Assembly: GCA_018894995.1 (NCBI GenBank)
Contig: JAHIOZ010000098.1
Coordinates: forward strand, 1-26,338
Source of the DNA: Patescibacteria group bacterium
GTDB lineage: Bacteria > Patescibacteriota > Minisyncoccia > Phycocordibacterales > UBA12079
Direction of reading: 5' to 3'
Length of the DNA stretch: 26,338 nucleotides
A program made the position numbers and the translations under genes. Below, piece after piece: positions 1 through 10,867 of the stretch; position 1 is the stretch's first letter, and each line of letters starts with the position of its first letter. The notes beneath the pieces were generated by a model. That model saw only the letters and a program-made list of their open reading frames with translations. It was not told where the DNA came from and ran no database searches.

Positions 1-450
1 AGGTTTTTTGAACCAAATAATTTTTTTGTGATTAGAAATGGTCTTTGGATCTCTCTAAATTTCCGTAATTACATTTTGTCGGTTGCGGAAAAAATTCTGC
101 CAATTCAACTGCCGAGTCATATTCCGGGTTTTGATTTGCCGAAAAGAATTAATGATGCGGAAATCCGCGCCAAGCTCGGCGACAACCATCTTTTTGAAGA
201 TGCGAGTGAATTTTGCTCGTGTCTTGCGGGAATGATTTCTCGCCAAGCCAATGGCGAGGAGGGAGATCTCCTCAATAACGGATCCTCGAACATTTTTTAT
301 GTTTGCGGAAAGGAAGGCGAGGTTTTTGCGGTTTTTGCGTCTTGGGCTGTCGACGATCGGAGGTGGGATGTGTCTGCGCTTCGGCTGGGCGGCCTTTCGT
401 GGCTTGCGGGCCGTCGTGCTTTTTCTCGCAACAGTATCTTGGGCAAATAG
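1..450 (+). CDS. 5'-truncated hypothetical protein; C-terminus resembles a DGR target variable region
   Basis: Frame is open from base 1 to TAG 448-450. C-terminal W..D.R.W.V.A.RL...W.AG.R.FSRN pattern; only 4 A in 321-429. Confidence 0.75.
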   Translation, partial: RFFEPNNFFVIRNGLWISLNFRNYILSVAEKILPIQLPSHIPGFDLPKRINDAEIRAKLGDNHLFEDASEFCSCLAGMISRQANGEEGDLLNNGSSNIFYVCGKEGEVFAVFASWAVDDRRWDVSALRLGGLSWLAGRRAFSRNSILGK

Positions 451-480
451 TCCTTTGAACTTGGACTCTTTGTCTCTTTG

Positions 481-530
481 ACCCTTGGTCATTCCAACGA
501 AAGTTGGAGTGATCAGGGGTTTTGTTTTGT
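481..530 (+). terminator. Stem-loop with GAAA tetraloop and T-tract (intrinsic terminator and/or DGR cis hairpin)
   Basis: CCCTTGGTCATTCCAAC-GAAA-GTTGGAGTGATCAGGGG gives 17 bp with 3 G.U pairs, followed by TTTTGTTTTGT. Confidence 0.7.
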
Positions 531-763
531 AAAAAATAAAATATTTTGATATTCTAAACAATGAAGTTTTTGTATTTGTCTCGGTCACGGCTTAGGCGGA
601 AGATTTTGAACATATTAAACATCAGAATTGTTTCGGTTAAGGCTTGAGCAAGCGTATGTTTGGTATGTTGTTGAAAAAATAATAAGGTGGAAAATTTGGT
701 TTGGTTATGTCATAATTGCCACCATCTTATTCATCATTACAAAGATGCAAAAGATAAATTCAT

Positions 764-837
764 GGAGGCATTGGTGTAGGAGTAACACTACAGCCTGTGG
801 AGCTGTCATCGTGGGTGCAAATCCCGCATGCCTCCCA
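764..837 (+). tRNA. tRNA-His (GTG) with encoded G-1
   Basis: Acceptor stem GAGGCAT/ATGCCTC, G-1 (764) opposite discriminator C835, D stem GTGT/ACAC, anticodon stem ACAGC/GCTGT with loop CTGTGGA, T stem GTGGG/CCCGC. Only CA follows the discriminator. Confidence 0.92.
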
Positions 838-857
838 GTAAAAAGTTCCCAATAAAA

Positions 858-884
858 AAAAGCTGGCCACCGGGGTCAGCTTTT
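858..884. terminator. Probable bidirectional terminator between tRNA-His and the convergent ORF
   Basis: AAAAGCTGGCC...GGTCAGCTTTT hairpin with A- and T-tracts. Confidence 0.6.
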
Positions 885-905
885 GGGTTGTGGGCGGGAG
901 TGATT

Positions 906-1229
906 TCAAAATTTTCTTATTTTCGCCAACATTTCGTCGGTTATTATTCTGACTACCTCACTGCTACTTAGTTTTTTGTAACCGGAAAAACGGTATTCTG
1001 TTAATTCGCAACAGATACACATTCTTCTTGGATAGTAAGATGTAGCCACTGCAATCATTGACTCTCCTCTTGGTTTTTGGCAGGTTTCAATAACTTCTTT
1101 GTGAGGGCAAGTTTCCCTCAGCAATACGCGATCTGATGCCACATTTTTCTCCAAAAGTTTTATCTCAGCTGAATTTTTTAGAATTCTGTTTTTAATTTCT
1201 AACAATTCGGATTCAGTTATTTCAGACAT
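906..1229 (-). CDS. Hypothetical protein, possible Zn-binding (CPH...CxCC)
   Basis: 107-aa ORF with AAGGAG SD upstream of ATG; downstream hairpin. Confidence 0.7.
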   Translation of the reverse strand: MSEITESELLEIKNRILKNSAEIKLLEKNVASDRVLLRETCPHKEVIETCQKPRGESMIAVATSYYPRRMCICCELTEYRFSGYKKLSSSEVVRIITDEMLAKIRKF

Positions 1230-1391
1230 TTTTCACTCCTTTGTTTTGGTTATTGTTTTTATACTTTTCCTGATTCGTATTATAGGTAAATACTTTTAAA
1301 AAGCAAATTATTTAAAAAACAATTTTGCTTGCTTTAACAAGCCCTAATACTAACCTCTGATACTCAATTTTTTGGCTCTGTCAAAAAATTG

Positions 1392-1419
1392 TTGACTTAT
1401 TTTTTAAAAAGAGTAGTAT
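1392..1419 (+). promoter_or_regulatory. Candidate sigma70 promoter for secE-nusG
   Basis: TTGACT-16 bp-TAGTAT. Confidence 0.4.
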
Positions 1420-1603
1420 ATTGACATAAGACCCGAAAGGGTTTTTAAAAATGAAAAATTTTATCTAATTAGCACATAACTTTGTCGTTTTAGAAAAAAT
1501 TTTAGAAATATTTGGTTTTTGTAAAGTTTTACAAAGCTTCTAACTAAATTTAAAAATCAGTTTGGCTGTCGGCTATGAGCTTTCAGCTATAAGCTTAAAA
1601 AAT

Positions 1604-1783
1604 ATGAAATTAATAGACTACATTAAAGATACAAAAAGCGAGTTAAAACATGTAACTTGGCCGACTAAACAACAGGCGGTTTGGTTTACAATTTTGGTTA
1701 TTATCATTTCCTTAGTTGTTTCTTTTTACCTCGGATTTTTTGATTTTATTTTTTCATTGGGAATTGAAAAATTTATCATTTAA
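1604..1783 (+). CDS. secE: Preprotein translocase subunit SecE
   Basis: ELKHVTWPT motif plus a single TM helix, upstream of nusG. ATG at 1604 preferred over TTG at 1562. Confidence 0.93.
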   Translation: MKLIDYIKDTKSELKHVTWPTKQQAVWFTILVIIISLVVSFYLGFFDFIFSLGIEKFII

Positions 1784-1919
1784 TATTTTTTAATTTTTGG
1801 AGAAATTAAAAAATCACGGAAGGTCGCGGAACGAACGCAGAATTACGCAGAAATAAAAATTTGCTTCGCAAATTTTTATCCATAAATTCTAAATCATAAT
1901 TTAAAATCTAAACAAACAT

Positions 1920-2492
1920 ATGGACAATCAACAAGAAGAACAAAAAATAACAAAACAGGATTCCAGTGCCGGCAGAAATTGGTATGCAATCCATACTTAT
2001 GCCGGGTATGAAAATGCTGTTGTGAGAAATCTTAAACAAAGAATTGAGTCTTTGTGTATGCAAGACTTGATTTTTGATGTGGTTGTTCCGGTGGAAAAAA
2101 AGATTAAAATTAAAGGAGGAAAAAGAGTTGAAGAACAAGAAAAAATTTACCCCGGATATATTTTGGTTGATATGATTGTAACCGATGATTCTTGGTATGT
2201 TGTCAGAAATACACCGAGAGTTACAGGTTTCGTAGGAGCGGGAGTTAACCCGGTTCCTGTGAGTGAGGAAGAAATGTCCGAGCTTACCAAAAGAATGAAT
2301 ATGGATGTCACTAAACATGAGGTTGATTTGCAAATTGACGAAGCGGTTATCATCACCGACGGACCGTTTAAAGATACAGAGGGTAAGGTTATAGAAATTG
2401 ACGAGAAGAGCGGAAAAGTTAAAGTTCTTATTTCAATGTTCGGAAGAGAAACTCCAGCTGAGTTGGACTTTTTACAAATAAAGAGAATTTAG
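1920..2492 (+). CDS. nusG: Transcription termination/antitermination factor NusG
   Basis: WYAIHTYAGYE N-terminus, IYPGYILV, VRNTPRVTGFVG, C-terminal KOW domain (GPFKD...FGRETP). Confidence 0.97.
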   Translation: MDNQQEEQKITKQDSSAGRNWYAIHTYAGYENAVVRNLKQRIESLCMQDLIFDVVVPVEKKIKIKGGKRVEEQEKIYPGYILVDMIVTDDSWYVVRNTPRVTGFVGAGVNPVPVSEEEMSELTKRMNMDVTKHEVDLQIDEAVIITDGPFKDTEGKVIEIDEKSGKVKVLISMFGRETPAELDFLQIKRI

Positions 2493-2527
2493 AAAAACAA
2501 AGAGTGAAGCGATTATGTTTTTCTTAA

Positions 2528-2799
2528 CCCTGTTAAGTTCAAATTTCGCAGAAATTTGAAACATTTAAACTTTTAGCAGTTTGTCATTTGGGTGGTCAGG
2601 TAGCCTGTTGTGTTTACCCAACACTCTGATAATCAATAAAAGTTTAAATGATACTTAACTGGGGTATGGTTAAATAAATTTATTGAGTTAATTAAAATTT
2701 AGAGTATTGCGGGTTAGAAAGTAGCCCTAGTGAAATATCTTTTATTTTTTCTTAAAAATAAAAGTTTCATTTGCTTGAGGCAAATGAATTTCACAGGGC
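2528..2799. other. Two nested multi-stem inverted-repeat structures in the nusG-rplK spacer
   Basis: Stem pairs 2528-2538/2653-2663, 2538-2560, 2562-2575/2637-2650 (perfect 14 bp), and a three-way junction at 2724-2799. Confidence 0.6.
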
Positions 2800-2835
2800 C
2801 ATAATTTTCTAATTCGCTTCGCTCATAAGAAAATT

Positions 2836-3258
2836 ATGGCAAAAAAAGCAATAAAAAAATTAAAATTACAAATTCCTGCAGGTAAAGCTACACCGGCTCC
2901 TCCTGTTGGACCGGCTTTGGGACAAGCCGGAATTAATATCGGTGAATTCGTAAATCAATTTAACGGTGCGACTAAAGAAATGATGGGGGATATCATCCCG
3001 GTTATAATTTCTGTTTATGAAGACAGAACTTTTGATTTTGTTCTTAAGACTCCGCCGGCATCAAGATTGATTTTGAAAAAAATGGGAATCGCAAAAGGTT
3101 CCGGCAAAAATCTTACAAAGAAAGCTGGGACTATTACAAAAAATCAAATTAGAGAAATTGCGGAACAAAAAATGGCTGATTTAAGCGCGAATGATATTGA
3201 AGCGGCGATGAAGATTATTGAAGGGACAGCTAGGAGTATGGGCGTCGAAGTTAAGTGA
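2836..3258 (+). CDS. rplK: 50S ribosomal protein L11
   Basis: [21 protein letters not shown]...GTARSMG signature. Confidence 0.98.
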
Positions 3259-4126: not shown

Positions 4127-4896
4127 GTAAATTCAATTTTCTTGAAGAATACGATCTCGGTAATGCTTGGTTTTCTGCCCTAGATACTATTATGTCGAAA
4201 GGTCGAAGATATCTTATTACGAGTGGGAGTTATGAAGGTATCCACAGAATTGGTATGCCTACTTTGATTAATATCGAAAATCCCGGAAATAGACCTCTTT
4301 TTCCGATAATTCCTGATGGAATTCCGGCTCCGACTAACGAAGAAGATATTAACGAATATGTCGGGTATCTTGTAAACGGAGAAAAACAACCTAACGAGCA
4401 TTATACCTATGGGGAAGACTTGCACTGGCTTGTTGAGTGGACTATCAAGCATTACAAGAATTTTGGTCATGGGAATAATCATTGTTATATGACTGTCGGG
4501 CGTCCCGAAACTGTTCATTTTTACGATCGGGATGTCAATTATTCTGAAGATATTAAGGTCGTTAGCGCACCGGATATTTCTAGAATTCATCACATTGATA
4601 ATGCATGGAATAAAAATCATGCCATCAAAACAAGCTCCCAATGTCTTCGCGGTATTGATACATGGATTGACGATGGTAAACTTCATTTCTGGGTTTACTT
4701 CCGGTCCTGGGATTTGTGGGGTGGTTTTCCTGTCAATCTTGGTGGAATTCAGCTTCTCAAAGAATATATGGCGGCGGAGATTGGCGTCGGTGACGGCTCA
4801 ATGACCGTTGCTTGTAAAGATCTTCATGTGTACGAACACACTTGGGTTGTTGCGCTTATGCGTCTTAAAAAAGACGAAAGTCTCCTCAAAAGATAA
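4123..4896 (+). CDS. thyA: Thymidylate synthase-like protein (short, archaeal-like ThyA)
   Basis: QCL catalytic Cys, YFRSWD, FPVNL, LHVYE motifs; ATGA overlap with the deaminase. Confidence 0.82.
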   Translation: MSKFNFLEEYDLGNAWFSALDTIMSKGRRYLITSGSYEGIHRIGMPTLINIENPGNRPLFPIIPDGIPAPTNEEDINEYVGYLVNGEKQPNEHYTYGEDLHWLVEWTIKHYKNFGHGNNHCYMTVGRPETVHFYDRDVNYSEDIKVVSAPDISRIHHIDNAWNKNHAIKTSSQCLRGIDTWIDDGKLHFWVYFRSWDLWGGFPVNLGGIQLLKEYMAAEIGVGDGSMTVACKDLHVYEHTWVVALMRLKKDESLLKR

Positions 4897-6882: not shown

Positions 6883-9800
6883 ATGGATAATGAAAAAAAT
6901 ATAGATAATAAATCCGAAACTGCCCAAAGCGAGGAAAAGATTTTGGAGTTTTGGCGGGAGAATAAAATTTTTGAAAAGTCGTTGGACTCTAAACCTTCGG
7001 ACGGGCGAGGAAAAGAAGCGCCCAAAGGTGATTTTGTTTTTTACGACGGTCCGCCTTTTGCGACTGGTTTGCCTCACTATGGGCATATTTTGGCTGGAAC
7101 AATCAAAGATATTATTCCGCGTTATCAGACAATGCTCGGCAAAAAAGTTTCTCGTCGTTGGGGTTGGGATTGTCATGGTTTGCCGATTGAAAATTTGATT
7201 GAAAAGGAACTCAATTTAAAAACTAAACAAGATATTTACGATTACGGAGTGGAGAAATTCAATGAAGCTGCCAAACAAAGCGTACTTCGTTATGATGTTG
7301 ATTGGAAAAAGATTATTCCGCGAACGGGTCGCTGGGTGGATATGGGTTCAAGTTATCAAACAATGGATACTTCTTATTCTGAATCCATTTGGCATATTTT
7401 TAAAACTATTTATGATAAAAATTTAATTTACGAAGGACATAAAGCGATGCATCTTTGTCCTCGTTGTGAGACAACTCTTTCAAACTTTGAAGTTAATCAG
7501 GGGTATAAAGATATTAAAGATTTAACGGCGACGGTGAAATTCAAACTTGATGTCGGACAAAAAATTGGTGATTTTGTTGCAGATGATAATACTTACATTT
7601 TGGCGTGGACGACTACGCCGTGGACTTTGCCTGGAAATGTTGCACTCGCAGTAAATGATGGAATCATTTATGCTCGAATTCAAAAATCAAATATCAAAAA
7701 TCAAAATGAAAATGCAAAATTAAAAAATAACGAGACATATATTGTTGCTAAGGAAAGAATTGTTGGTGTTGTTGGTGATGAAGAATACGAAATAATTGAA
7801 GAATTCAAAGGTTCAGAATTGATTGGAAAATCTTACAAACCACTTTTTGATTATTATTTAAAAGATGAAAATTTGGAAAATCGCGAGAATGCCCGCCCGC
7901 AACGCCTGAGCGAGGCTCAGCCTAGCGATGGCGGGCGGGGTTGGAAAATTTACGGTGCGGATTTTGTGACTACTGAAGATGGAACTGGAATTGTTCACAT
8001 CGCTCCTGCTTTTGGTTCTGACGATATGGAGTTGGGGAAAAAAGAAAATTTACCGTTTATTCAGCATGTTTCAGTTGATGGAAAATTCAAACCGGAAGTT
8101 GGTGATGGCTTGGCTGGGTTGTATGTAAAACCTAAAGATGATTCTGCGAATGGACAAGACCATATGTCGACCGATATTGAAATAATAAAATTGTTGGCTA
8201 AAAAAGAAGCTCTGTTTTCAAAAGAAAAAGTCACTCACTCTTATCCTCATTGTTGGAGATGTGAAACACCTCTTTTAAATTACGCGACTTCGTCGTGGTT
8301 TTTGAAAGTTACGGGAATTAAAGATGAAATGATTAAAGTTAATCAAGGTGTTAATTGGGTGCCGGAAAATATGCGAGATGGAAGATTTGGAAAGTGGCTT
8401 GAAGGAGCGAGAGACTGGGCGATTTCAAGGACAAGATTTTGGGGGGCACCGTTGCCTGTTTGGAGGTGCCAAACTGGGAAATTCGAAACCTTAAATTCTA
8501 AATCCGAAACAAATTCAAATGGCCAAAATTTAAATGTTCAAAAAAATATCGGTTGCGGGGCGATGAGGGTTGTTGGTTCAATTGCCGAGTTGAAAGAGAA
8601 TTTGCCGAAAAGAAATAATATTTTTGTGATGCGACACGGAGAGGCGGACAACAACACTAAAAATGTAATCAGTACTCAAAAACTCAACGAGCATCATTTA
8701 ACCGAGAAAGGAAAAGAGCAGGTTTTGGGGGCGATTGGAAATTTAAAAAATCAAAAAATTGATTTAATTATTTCTTCTCCGTTTGTAAGAACAGTTGAAA
8801 CAGCTGAATTGGTAGCTGAAGGTTTGGGTTTAAAAAAAGAAGAAATTATTTTTGACGAGAGAATCGGAGAAATTAATTTGGGGGATATGGACGGAAAGAG
8901 TAATAAAGATTATCACAAATATTTTGAATCCCAATTGGAAAAATTCACTAAAACTCCACCAAACGGAGAAAGTTTGACCGACTTGAAAAAACGAGTCGCG
9001 GAATTTCTTTTTGAAATTAATGAAAAGTATGAAGGCAAAAATATTTTGGTTGTAACTCACGAATATTCTTTTTGGATGATGATGACCGTTTCTGATGCTT
9101 TGACGGATACTCAATCTGTAAAAATGAAAGACGATGAAAATATTGTTCAAAATGCGGAAGTCAGAGATTTGGATTTCAGAAGTTTACCTCATAACAAAAA
9201 TTACGAGATTGATTTGCATATGCCTTACATCGATGAGATTAAATTCAAATGTGCTTGCGGTGGAGAAATGAAAAGAATTCCTGAAGTGTTTGACTGTTGG
9301 TTTGAATCGGGGGCGATGCCTTATGCTTCCAATCACTATCCTTTTGAAAATTTGGATAAATTTAATCCTGAAAAAGAAATCGGTTTTCCGGCAGATTTTA
9401 TTGCCGAGGGTCAAGACCAAACACGAGGGTGGTTTTACACTTCGCTTGTTTTGGCAACCGCTTTGTTTGGAAAAACTTCTTATAAAAATGTAATTGTAAA
9501 CGGAATGGTTTTGGCGGAGGACGGAAAGAAAATGTCAAAGAGTTTGAAAAATTATCCTGACATTAATTATATTTTGGATAAATATGGAGCTGATGCGATG
9601 CGATATTATATGATAAATTCGCCGATTGTTCGGGCGGAAGATTTGAATTTCTCGGAAAAAGGAGTGGACGAAGTTTTGAAAAAAATTATTTTGAAAGTAA
9701 AAAATGTTTATTCGTTTTATGAATTGTATAAAGATGCTTTAAAAGAAAAAATTAATCCGCAGGATAGTAAAAATGTCTTGGATATTTGGATTTTATCCAG

Positions 9801-10675: not shown

Positions 10676-10772
10676 CGTCTTTGCGAGAAAACAGGCGTGA
10701 AATTTTGGCGTCTAAAATGGACGGTCGTCCATTTTAGACGCCAAAATTTCACGCCTGTTTTCGTGGCAATCC
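10676..10772 (+). repeat. CGTC-tagged REP-like element enclosing a 37-bp perfect inverted repeat
   Basis: CGTCTTTGCGAG-[74 nt]-CGTGGCAATCC; arms 10687-10723 and 10726-10762. Confidence 0.85.
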
Positions 10773-10797
10773 GGAAACTTTCGCAGTTAAAACTTTA

Positions 10798-10843
10798 TAG
10801 ACCCGCACCAATTTTTTTACAAAAAAGTTGGTGGCGGGTAGAC
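10798..10843. repeat. 36-nt hairpin insertion flanked by a TAGAC duplication
   Basis: TAGAC at 10798-10802 and 10839-10843; empty-site version at 13081-13115. Confidence 0.65.
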
Positions 10844-10867
10844 TTTCAACTTTACAAACTTTATACT
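10839..10867 (+). promoter_or_regulatory. sigma70-like promoter, leaderless arrangement
   Basis: TAGACT-17 bp-TATACT, 6 nt before ATG 10874. Confidence 0.6.

Follow-up and report, generated by a model that had tools for sequence, protein, structure and literature searches.

An adenine-poor 3′ tract in a Patescibacteria gene as the probable variable region of a remote diversity-generating retroelement target

Diversity-generating retroelements (DGRs) are enriched in CPR bacteria, where many classes of variable region (VR) are unclassified and the target proteins are reported to be without recognisable domains, transmembrane segments or signal peptides (PMC8144416, PMC5758913). The “CPR set” with unclassified, UVR-type variable regions is that of Wu et al. 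2018, who found mostly single, adjacent targets in the CPR clade (PMC5758913), and DGR clade 2 is that of Roux et al. 2021, according to whom surveys that require the reverse transcriptase (RT) to adjoin the VR miss remote targets (PMC8144416). In phage DGRs, the target requires a hairpin past the VR whose loop reads GRNA (PMC3240598).

The window analysed here is the whole 26,338-nt stretch of contig JAHIOZ010000098.1 of a Patescibacteria group bacterium. It begins within a gene, ORF1, whose positions 322–432 we consider, with a probability of roughly 0.8, to be the VR of a gene targeted remotely by a CPR-type DGR. As in the described CPR systems, the relatives of this locus have a short RT, a template repeat (TR) between target and RT, mismatches specific to A and small targets without recognisable domains, transmembrane segments or signal peptides, and the setting is groundwater. 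Unlike in those systems, the window holds the target alone, and the members of the family are dispersed, one TR of a related genome (G043) matching members on two contigs. With the prototype, the DGR of Bordetella phage BPP-1 (mtd-avd-TR-brt), the locus shares a C-terminal VR, adenine mutagenesis that is concentrated in AAY codons and, past the VR, a hairpin whose GAAA loop fits GRNA (PMC3240598). It differs from BPP-1 and other phage DGRs in that the stem is of 18 bp and contains AT pairs, rather than of 7–10 bp and GC-rich, and in that the hairpin lies ~50 nt from the VR end, rather than 4–34, and apparently doubles as a terminator. It differs from BPP-1 further in an 8-nt array lying between VR and hairpin, and in that no solved structure matches ORF1 by sequence and the likeness to the C-type lectin fold of Mtd is weak (Z 3.5).

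Adenine depletion in ORF1 and the family of its product

The sequence-only reading of the window had pointed to a 3′ end of ORF1 nearly free of adenine, and its counts were reproduced when the tract was recounted. Positions 321–429 contain 4 A (353, 356, 361 and 368), 25 C, 42 G and 38 T; there is no A across 369–429, and all 36 codons of 322–429 carry T, G or C at the third base. Codons ending in A make up 18% of the remaining ORF1 and 33–36% of nusG and rplK of the same window, and the GC content drops from 61% within the tract to 42% over the remaining ORF1 and 34% over the window. When both strands of the 890,876-base genome were scanned, the count of A (or T) per 109-nt segment had a mean of 34.9 (sd 8.5), and 321–429 was the sole 109-nt segment with four or fewer A (fraction 5.7e-7) and thus the most A-poor of all. 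The shortage of A is therefore real and far beyond chance. It is limited to A, T being plentiful in the tract (38/109).

The runner-up segments carry 6 A and lie mostly on GC-rich contigs that are probably foreign. Other low-A segments, on contigs C112, C116 and C164, were considered as DGR tracts and rejected, being GC-rich or T-rich and unrelated to DGRs. Over the stretches read, C112 and C116 have ~65–70% GC, compared with 36% in the bin, and are probably contaminants from another organism.

The features of the locus are collected in Table 1. The predicted VR can be aligned with the TR of a related cassette (locus L011), which reads VFAVNVNWNADNRKWNCNANRLDDNRWNAGNRAFS where the window reads VFAVFASWAVDDRRWDVSALRLGGLSWLAGRRAFS, and the variable codons alternate with fixed codons for W, V, A, R and G. 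The tract would be nearly free of A because the template avoids A at its fixed positions and because, in this allele, another base was written at 21 of the ~25 template adenines. Four of the 25 A positions of the L011 TR still carry A in the window, which fits the expected retention of about a quarter (p 0.21); this is less than the family average of 45%, but near the values for L068 and L059. The Asn-rich string that the sequence-only reading had obtained by back-mutation closely matches the real TRs of homologous cassettes, that of L011 among them.

Table 1. Coordinates of the features at the ORF1 locus (window positions) and of related features elsewhere (prefixed by contig or locus)
Feature	Position	Strand	Remark
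ORF1, probable DGR target gene	1–450	+	5′ end cut by contig start; upstream part on contig C158
Predicted VR, homologous to TR/VR repeat of related cassettes	322–432	+	Codon-for-codon alignment to L011 TR; starts at the VFAV codons and ends with a conserved boundary motif, TCTCGCAAC (424–432)
Variable codons	334–336, 340–342, 346–348, 352–357, 361–363, 367–369, 373–375, 379–381, 388–396, 403–405, 412–414	+	
CDS 3′ end and 3′ UTR, candidate target-end element	413–488	+	Nearly exact match to other loci of the same genome
8-nt array	451–488	+	About five degenerate units, from stop codon to hairpin
Hairpin, 18 bp, GAAA loop (499–502)	481–520	+	Followed by T-run 521–530
C108 DGR locus (L009)	C108:3095–6760		
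C108 RT	L009:1369–2538	+	
C108 bAvd	L009:2839–3186	−	74.8 bits
C108 TR	C108:5632–5749		88% identity to C108 VR over 118 nt, A-specific
C108 VR	C108:6358–6475		
tRNA-like repeats	L011:1189–1322, 4145–4260		
tRNA-like repeats	L012:7142–7302, 7973–8075, 10743–10845		

Contig C158, joined to the window through an exact overlap of 141 nt (window 1–141), adds 122 nt upstream of ORF1. The complete product is a protein of 191 aa that starts with MADKK, and a ribosome-binding site is present upstream. The first difference of a second allele found in groundwater runs (see below) is at position 142, exactly where C158 ends; the assembly graph thus branches at 142, which explains the contig break at the window start. 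A tRNA-His gene lies at 765–836, 315 nt past ORF1, and was the sole Rfam match in 1–3000.

No signal peptide or transmembrane segment was evident in the ORF1 product, and searches of Pfam and NCBIfam for a family and of PDB for a related sequence gave no match. A word-indexed search retrieved 13 relatives (36–53% identity, about 130–220 aa, some of them partial), and in the homologue comparisons identity of ORF1 to family members was 42–58%. With a profile search of 1.84 billion representatives, 3456 clusters matched the ORF1 family at E<=1e-3. A scan of one genome per species yielded 54 loci of the family, every one in CPR/Patescibacteria MAGs; a few of these loci bear obviously wrong automatic labels, and the typical family protein has ~200 aa. 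In the ESM Atlas, only unnamed Minisyncoccota clusters matched the family, and a search of a viral contig collection found no relative of it. Comparison by hhalign of the family with two other target types, including the target of a second DGR of the same bin (C108), revealed no significant relation. The near-identical proteins P0004, P0006 and P0009 differ from each other at fixed C-terminal positions that are interspersed with invariant W, V, A, R and G residues. One representative protein, P0015 (926 aa), carries five tandem copies of the ORF1-family domain.

Cassettes of relatives and allelic variation in groundwater

In the relatives, the C-terminal tract aligned with that of ORF1 is a VR paired with a TR in 20 cassettes. 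Downstream of the gene for P0004 (L011) come a 106-nt repeat and an RVT_1 gene, and the gene for P0012 (L012–L014) adjoins a repeat, a bAvd gene and an RT; the mismatches between TR and VR fall on TR adenines in 13 of 13 and 13 of 14 cases, respectively. Among the 54 family loci, 20 have a TR ~300 nt past the stop codon in the order VR, TR, RT, and in 18 of these 20 an RT with 55–87% identity to the L011/L012 RTs follows the TR within the locus. Summed over the 20 pairs there are 349 mismatches, 319 at TR adenines and 30 at other bases, and the 319 substituted adenines are out of a total of 584. No TR or RT was found within 6 kb of the remaining 34 loci. The RTs of the cassettes are of 326–354 aa, the TR of ~110–120 nt lies between target and RT, and bAvd is encoded on the opposite strand where checked (L012–L014). 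An RT of the L011 type was found in three of six same-genus genomes. The contigs carrying these cassettes are often merely 3–4 kb long and appear to break at repeats, which would favour their loss from bins. Repeats resembling tRNA, with T-arms of the GTTCGAATCC type, flank target genes and cassettes in two relatives, L011 and L012 (Table 1).

In genome G043, the TR beside family member L028 matches the VR of this member, with 18 of 21 mismatches at A. It has a second match in the family member L039, which lies on a different contig; there, 17 of the 19 mismatches are at A. Since one TR matches members on two contigs, dispersed members can be templated in trans, and comparison of the repeats demonstrates such templating of dispersed paralogues in this relative.

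Variation of the tract itself was followed by aligning Logan contigs of three groundwater runs, X1, X2 and X3, to window 1–900; the counts below refer to these contigs and not to raw reads. Run X1 contains the window’s allele of 189–443 (depth 14.3) and a second allele (depth 11.5), and a third allele (record 10) is present in X2. Within 322–432, alleles in the three runs differ at 21 substitution sites, of which 20 are at codon position 1 or 2 and 19 coincide with adenine positions of homologous TRs (hypergeometric p 9e-14). Three letters each occur at sites 347, 374, 403, 404 and 413, and all four A of the window’s tract are variable sites. With few exceptions, the variable sites lie in codons that are AAY or GAY in the homologous TRs. 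Position-specific hypervariability, which the sequence-only reading had proposed to look for, is borne out in the contigs. The proposal of this reading that ORF1 is a DGR target is upheld by the 20 homologous cassettes with a VR and by allelic variation on template-adenine codons, and the homologues display position-specific variability as well as TRs and RTs. At the level of sequence, these comparisons demonstrate the family membership of ORF1, the position of its VR and the adenine-site pattern of allelic variation.

The second allele, which is the commonest alternative, differs from the window at non-A sites too, namely at 408 and 409 and by an indel pair, and has 12 further differences upstream of the VR; it therefore comes from another lineage or a paralogue rather than being a fresh variant. 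Record 10 could not be aligned upstream of 287 at 80% likeness, and its 30 readable bases upstream encode a related but clearly different peptide. Within 322–432, record 10 and the window have only 15 differences, all at positions homologous to TR adenines. Identity at the non-adenine VR positions of genes that are otherwise divergent suggests a shared template.

Search for the template and weighing of alternative explanations

The bin comprises 186 contigs and is 80% complete. The near-identical TR that was looked for by whole-genome BLASTN was not found in it: BLAST and an A-tolerant ungapped scan with window 300–450 returned only A-rich noise, and a protein search with the C-terminal 58 aa for a TR-encoded ORF gave no candidates. 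RT and TR lie outside the window, as the sequence-only reading had inferred, yet neither a cognate TR nor an RT of the matching, L011 type was found in the 80%-complete bin. The degenerate scaffold pattern of the window’s VR had no match in JGI metagenome contigs.

Record 17, a contig of run X3 (306 nt, depth 4.5; read in part), spans 368–432. At 374, 389, 392, 403 and 404 it carries A instead of the window’s C, G, G, C and T. Past the common boundary ...CTCGCAAC, it runs on as TCAATTATTTCTCCCAC... The flank of record 17 contains zero 8-nt units, is very similar to the TR flanks of same-genus members and carries the motif TTCTC[CT]C; this motif lies no further than 35 nt from the end of the TR in 11 of 20 cases and from the end of the VR in 0 of 20. 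At three codons that are variable among the other alleles, record 17 has the same CTT, CTT and CGT as the window; it is therefore either a template with less A than the TRs of the relatives or a copy of another kind. This low-depth contig appears to be the one direct trace of a TR for the window’s VR. Its 30-nt flank was found neither in the bin nor in JGI metagenome contigs.

It is almost certain that the tract was written by a DGR. An alternative to present-day servicing is that ORF1 carries an orphaned VR, whose cognate TR and RT have been lost from the lineage and which is frozen but has not yet drifted to an AT-rich composition; alleles in the groundwater runs would then be older products in different strains or paralogues. 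The lack of TR and matching RT in the bin agrees with such a loss, as do the differences of the second allele outside the VR. Whole-MAG searches for a TR were likewise negative for family members in G003 (100% complete), G006 (98%), G041 and G042, while the known TR of G043, used as a positive control, was recovered; since four MAGs are without a TR, orphan copies may be common. That orphaning and decay occur in the genus can be seen from G005, a single-contig genome without any RT, whose family member (G005:C1:263861–264277, L079) has an AT-rich VR-equivalent tract with A at third codon positions and looks like a long-orphaned relic. The same drifted tract, set against the clean tract of the window, argues for recent templating of the latter: with 0 of 36 codons ending in A and no A at fixed positions in a window of 34% GC, templating would have been very recent. 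Further points against an orphaned VR are the TR-flanked copy of the same scaffold in X3, the identity of the divergent gene of record 10 at all non-adenine VR positions, and the short cassette contigs of the relatives (3–4 kb), which may be easily lost from bins. We therefore regard an orphaned VR as unlikely, though it is the best of the alternatives.

A second explanation is that ORF1 is serviced by the DGR located on contig C108 of the same bin. Two RT genes were found in the bin. One of them, on C178 (L010:883–2430, minus strand), encodes a 515-aa RVT_1 protein; judging by eye we take the neighbouring gene to be an Mrr-type restriction gene, and this RT is presumably defence-associated and not of a DGR. 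The other, on C108, is a DGR-type RT that is accompanied by bAvd and has the motif-4 sequence IGNLTSQ, which we take to be DGR-typical; it belongs, however, to another lineage than the RTs of the ORF1 family and goes with an unrelated TR. The C108 RT is convergent to target-avd-TR, and the VR scaffold reads ...WLSEPH...RFRAVFRP. C108 thus resembles the DGR expected for ORF1 in belonging to the same organism and in having an A-specific TR/VR pair, there within a complete cassette, and differs in RT lineage, VR scaffold and the absence of the 8-nt array. Its RT is the sole DGR RT found in the bin, and the closest relative, G006, has a C108-type RT 32 kb from its ORF1 homologue on the same contig. 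Against servicing by C108, its TR matches its own VR only and has no similarity to window 300–450, the flank of its VR is without the 8-nt array, and RTs adjacent to ORF1-family genes form a separate group, with 55–63% identity among themselves and 33–35% to the C108 RT. Servicing of ORF1 by the C108 element is thus very improbable.

The least probable explanation, with hardly any chance of being correct, is that no DGR is involved and that the tract is a compositional oddity, such as a horizontally acquired GC-rich segment, or reflects ordinary diversifying selection on a surface patch, for although it has 61% GC in an AT-rich genome, depletion hits A alone with T abundant, the variation keeps away from third codon positions and falls where homologous cassettes have template adenines, and in 20 cassettes the corresponding tract is a proven VR.

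We therefore favour a VR that is likely still serviced by a TR and RT present in the population, with rewriting probably ongoing. We infer that a TR-Avd-RT cassette of the L011/L012 type exists in the organism outside the bin and still acts on ORF1. Such a cassette is expected to contain the TR, then a TTTCTCCC hairpin, avd on the opposite strand and the RT. The TR would carry the same scaffold as the VR, and most of its adenines would lie in AAY or GAY codons. After transcription of the TR, an Avd-assisted DGR RT would copy the RNA into cDNA, with misincorporation opposite template adenines, and the cDNA would replace the VR as far as the conserved TCTCGCAAC boundary, which is common to TRs and VRs of the L011-type RT clade. 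What tags the gene as a recipient may be the 3′ element specific to VRs, the array of 8-nt units and the hairpin with the GAAA loop.

Downstream elements, predicted fold and implications

The region from 413 to 488 is a candidate IMH-like element at the target end, as suggested by its recurrence in the genome: a paralogue on C67 matches 413–480 at 97%, and the ends of contigs C42 and C43 match 452–480 at 100%. Because C42 and C43 each have one end within this 3′ UTR, at least one further copy is missing from the assembly. The C67 paralogue (C67:92–856, minus strand; L002) shares with the window the last ~35 coding bases, the 3′ UTR and the hairpin type, its protein is otherwise 32% identical to ORF1, and its VR-equivalent tract is not A-poor. 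It was considered as the template and rejected, because it is itself a coding gene and its mismatches lie at positions other than A.

The array between the stop codon and the hairpin is built of 8-nt units of the types TCCTTTGA, CTCTTTGT and CCCTTGG, and similar tandem degenerate units (GACCCTTGG, GTCTCTTTG and the like) follow VR-bearing genes of relatives. Downstream of 51 family genes (L015–L068) the motif occurs 2.6 times per 70 nt, against a background of 0.14 in the same loci (~18-fold). It is rare in TR flanks (0.25 vs 3.15 per 70 nt). The array is also present after VRs of other scaffolds belonging to the same RT clade in G003, G001 and G037, and absent after the C108-type VR.

The hairpin has a fold energy of −16.1 kcal/mol (z −4.1). 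A GAAA-loop hairpin with compensatory changes in the stem follows the C67 paralogue and four of the five same-genus members shown; in L078 the loop differs. The hairpin looks like an intrinsic terminator, and its loop agrees with the GRNA sequence of phage targets, yet this agreement is not specific. By analogy with phage systems, it may also act as a DGR target hairpin or cruciform.

To judge from their distribution, array and hairpin accompany targets of the L011-type RT clade but not the C108-type target, and we suggest that the 3′ array, hairpin and 3′ element may mark a gene as recipient. More speculatively, and at considerably less than even odds, array, GAAA hairpin and TCTCGCAAC together could be a recipient signal by which one TR-Avd-RT cassette, maybe located on a separate or poorly assembling element, rewrites dispersed and divergent genes in trans. 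If so, a poorly assembling cassette would explain the occurrence of clean-looking VRs in near-complete genomes without cognate TR (G003, G006).

An AlphaFold2 model of the ORF1 product, built from an 80-sequence alignment, had a pLDDT of 95 and a pTM of 0.89. The protein would be a small, apparently cytoplasmic alpha/beta domain. In the model, the variable residues alternate along strands 108–116 and 121–128 and fill the loop 130–138. Read from this alternation and not measured on the model, they would form one exposed face, comprising one side of a beta-hairpin and the loop, which presumably binds a ligand. [quoted passage not shown] In the exhaustive aligner (VIA) the best rows had Z of 3.5–3.9, all below 4 and within the noise band of the tool. 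About 30 of the top 50 VIA rows were C-type-lectin-like folds, including an FGE paralogue (Z 3.8), TvpA (3.6) and Mtd (3.5). In the AlphaFold DB, the sole confident structural neighbours were uncharacterised CPR proteins. The predicted fold may therefore be a minimal C-type lectin variant or a separate fold. Unassigned VR domains of CPR are expected to be divergent C-lectin variants (Roux et al. 2021, PMC8144416), and the model fits this expectation without proving it.

A DGR target can thus be recognised from its composition alone even though the retroelement is off the contig. The family to which ORF1 belongs is very large, with its 3456 representative clusters; its small proteins appear to be cytoplasmic, match nothing in Pfam or NCBIfam and have a confidently predicted fold. 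Conserved non-coding elements past the VR are candidate signals for target recognition. The family-wide 3′ repeat array and the dispersed targets in the CPR clade seem to be new. The locus is one more example, of an already established class, of DGR-written and probably ongoing diversification of a binding surface in CPR bacteria.
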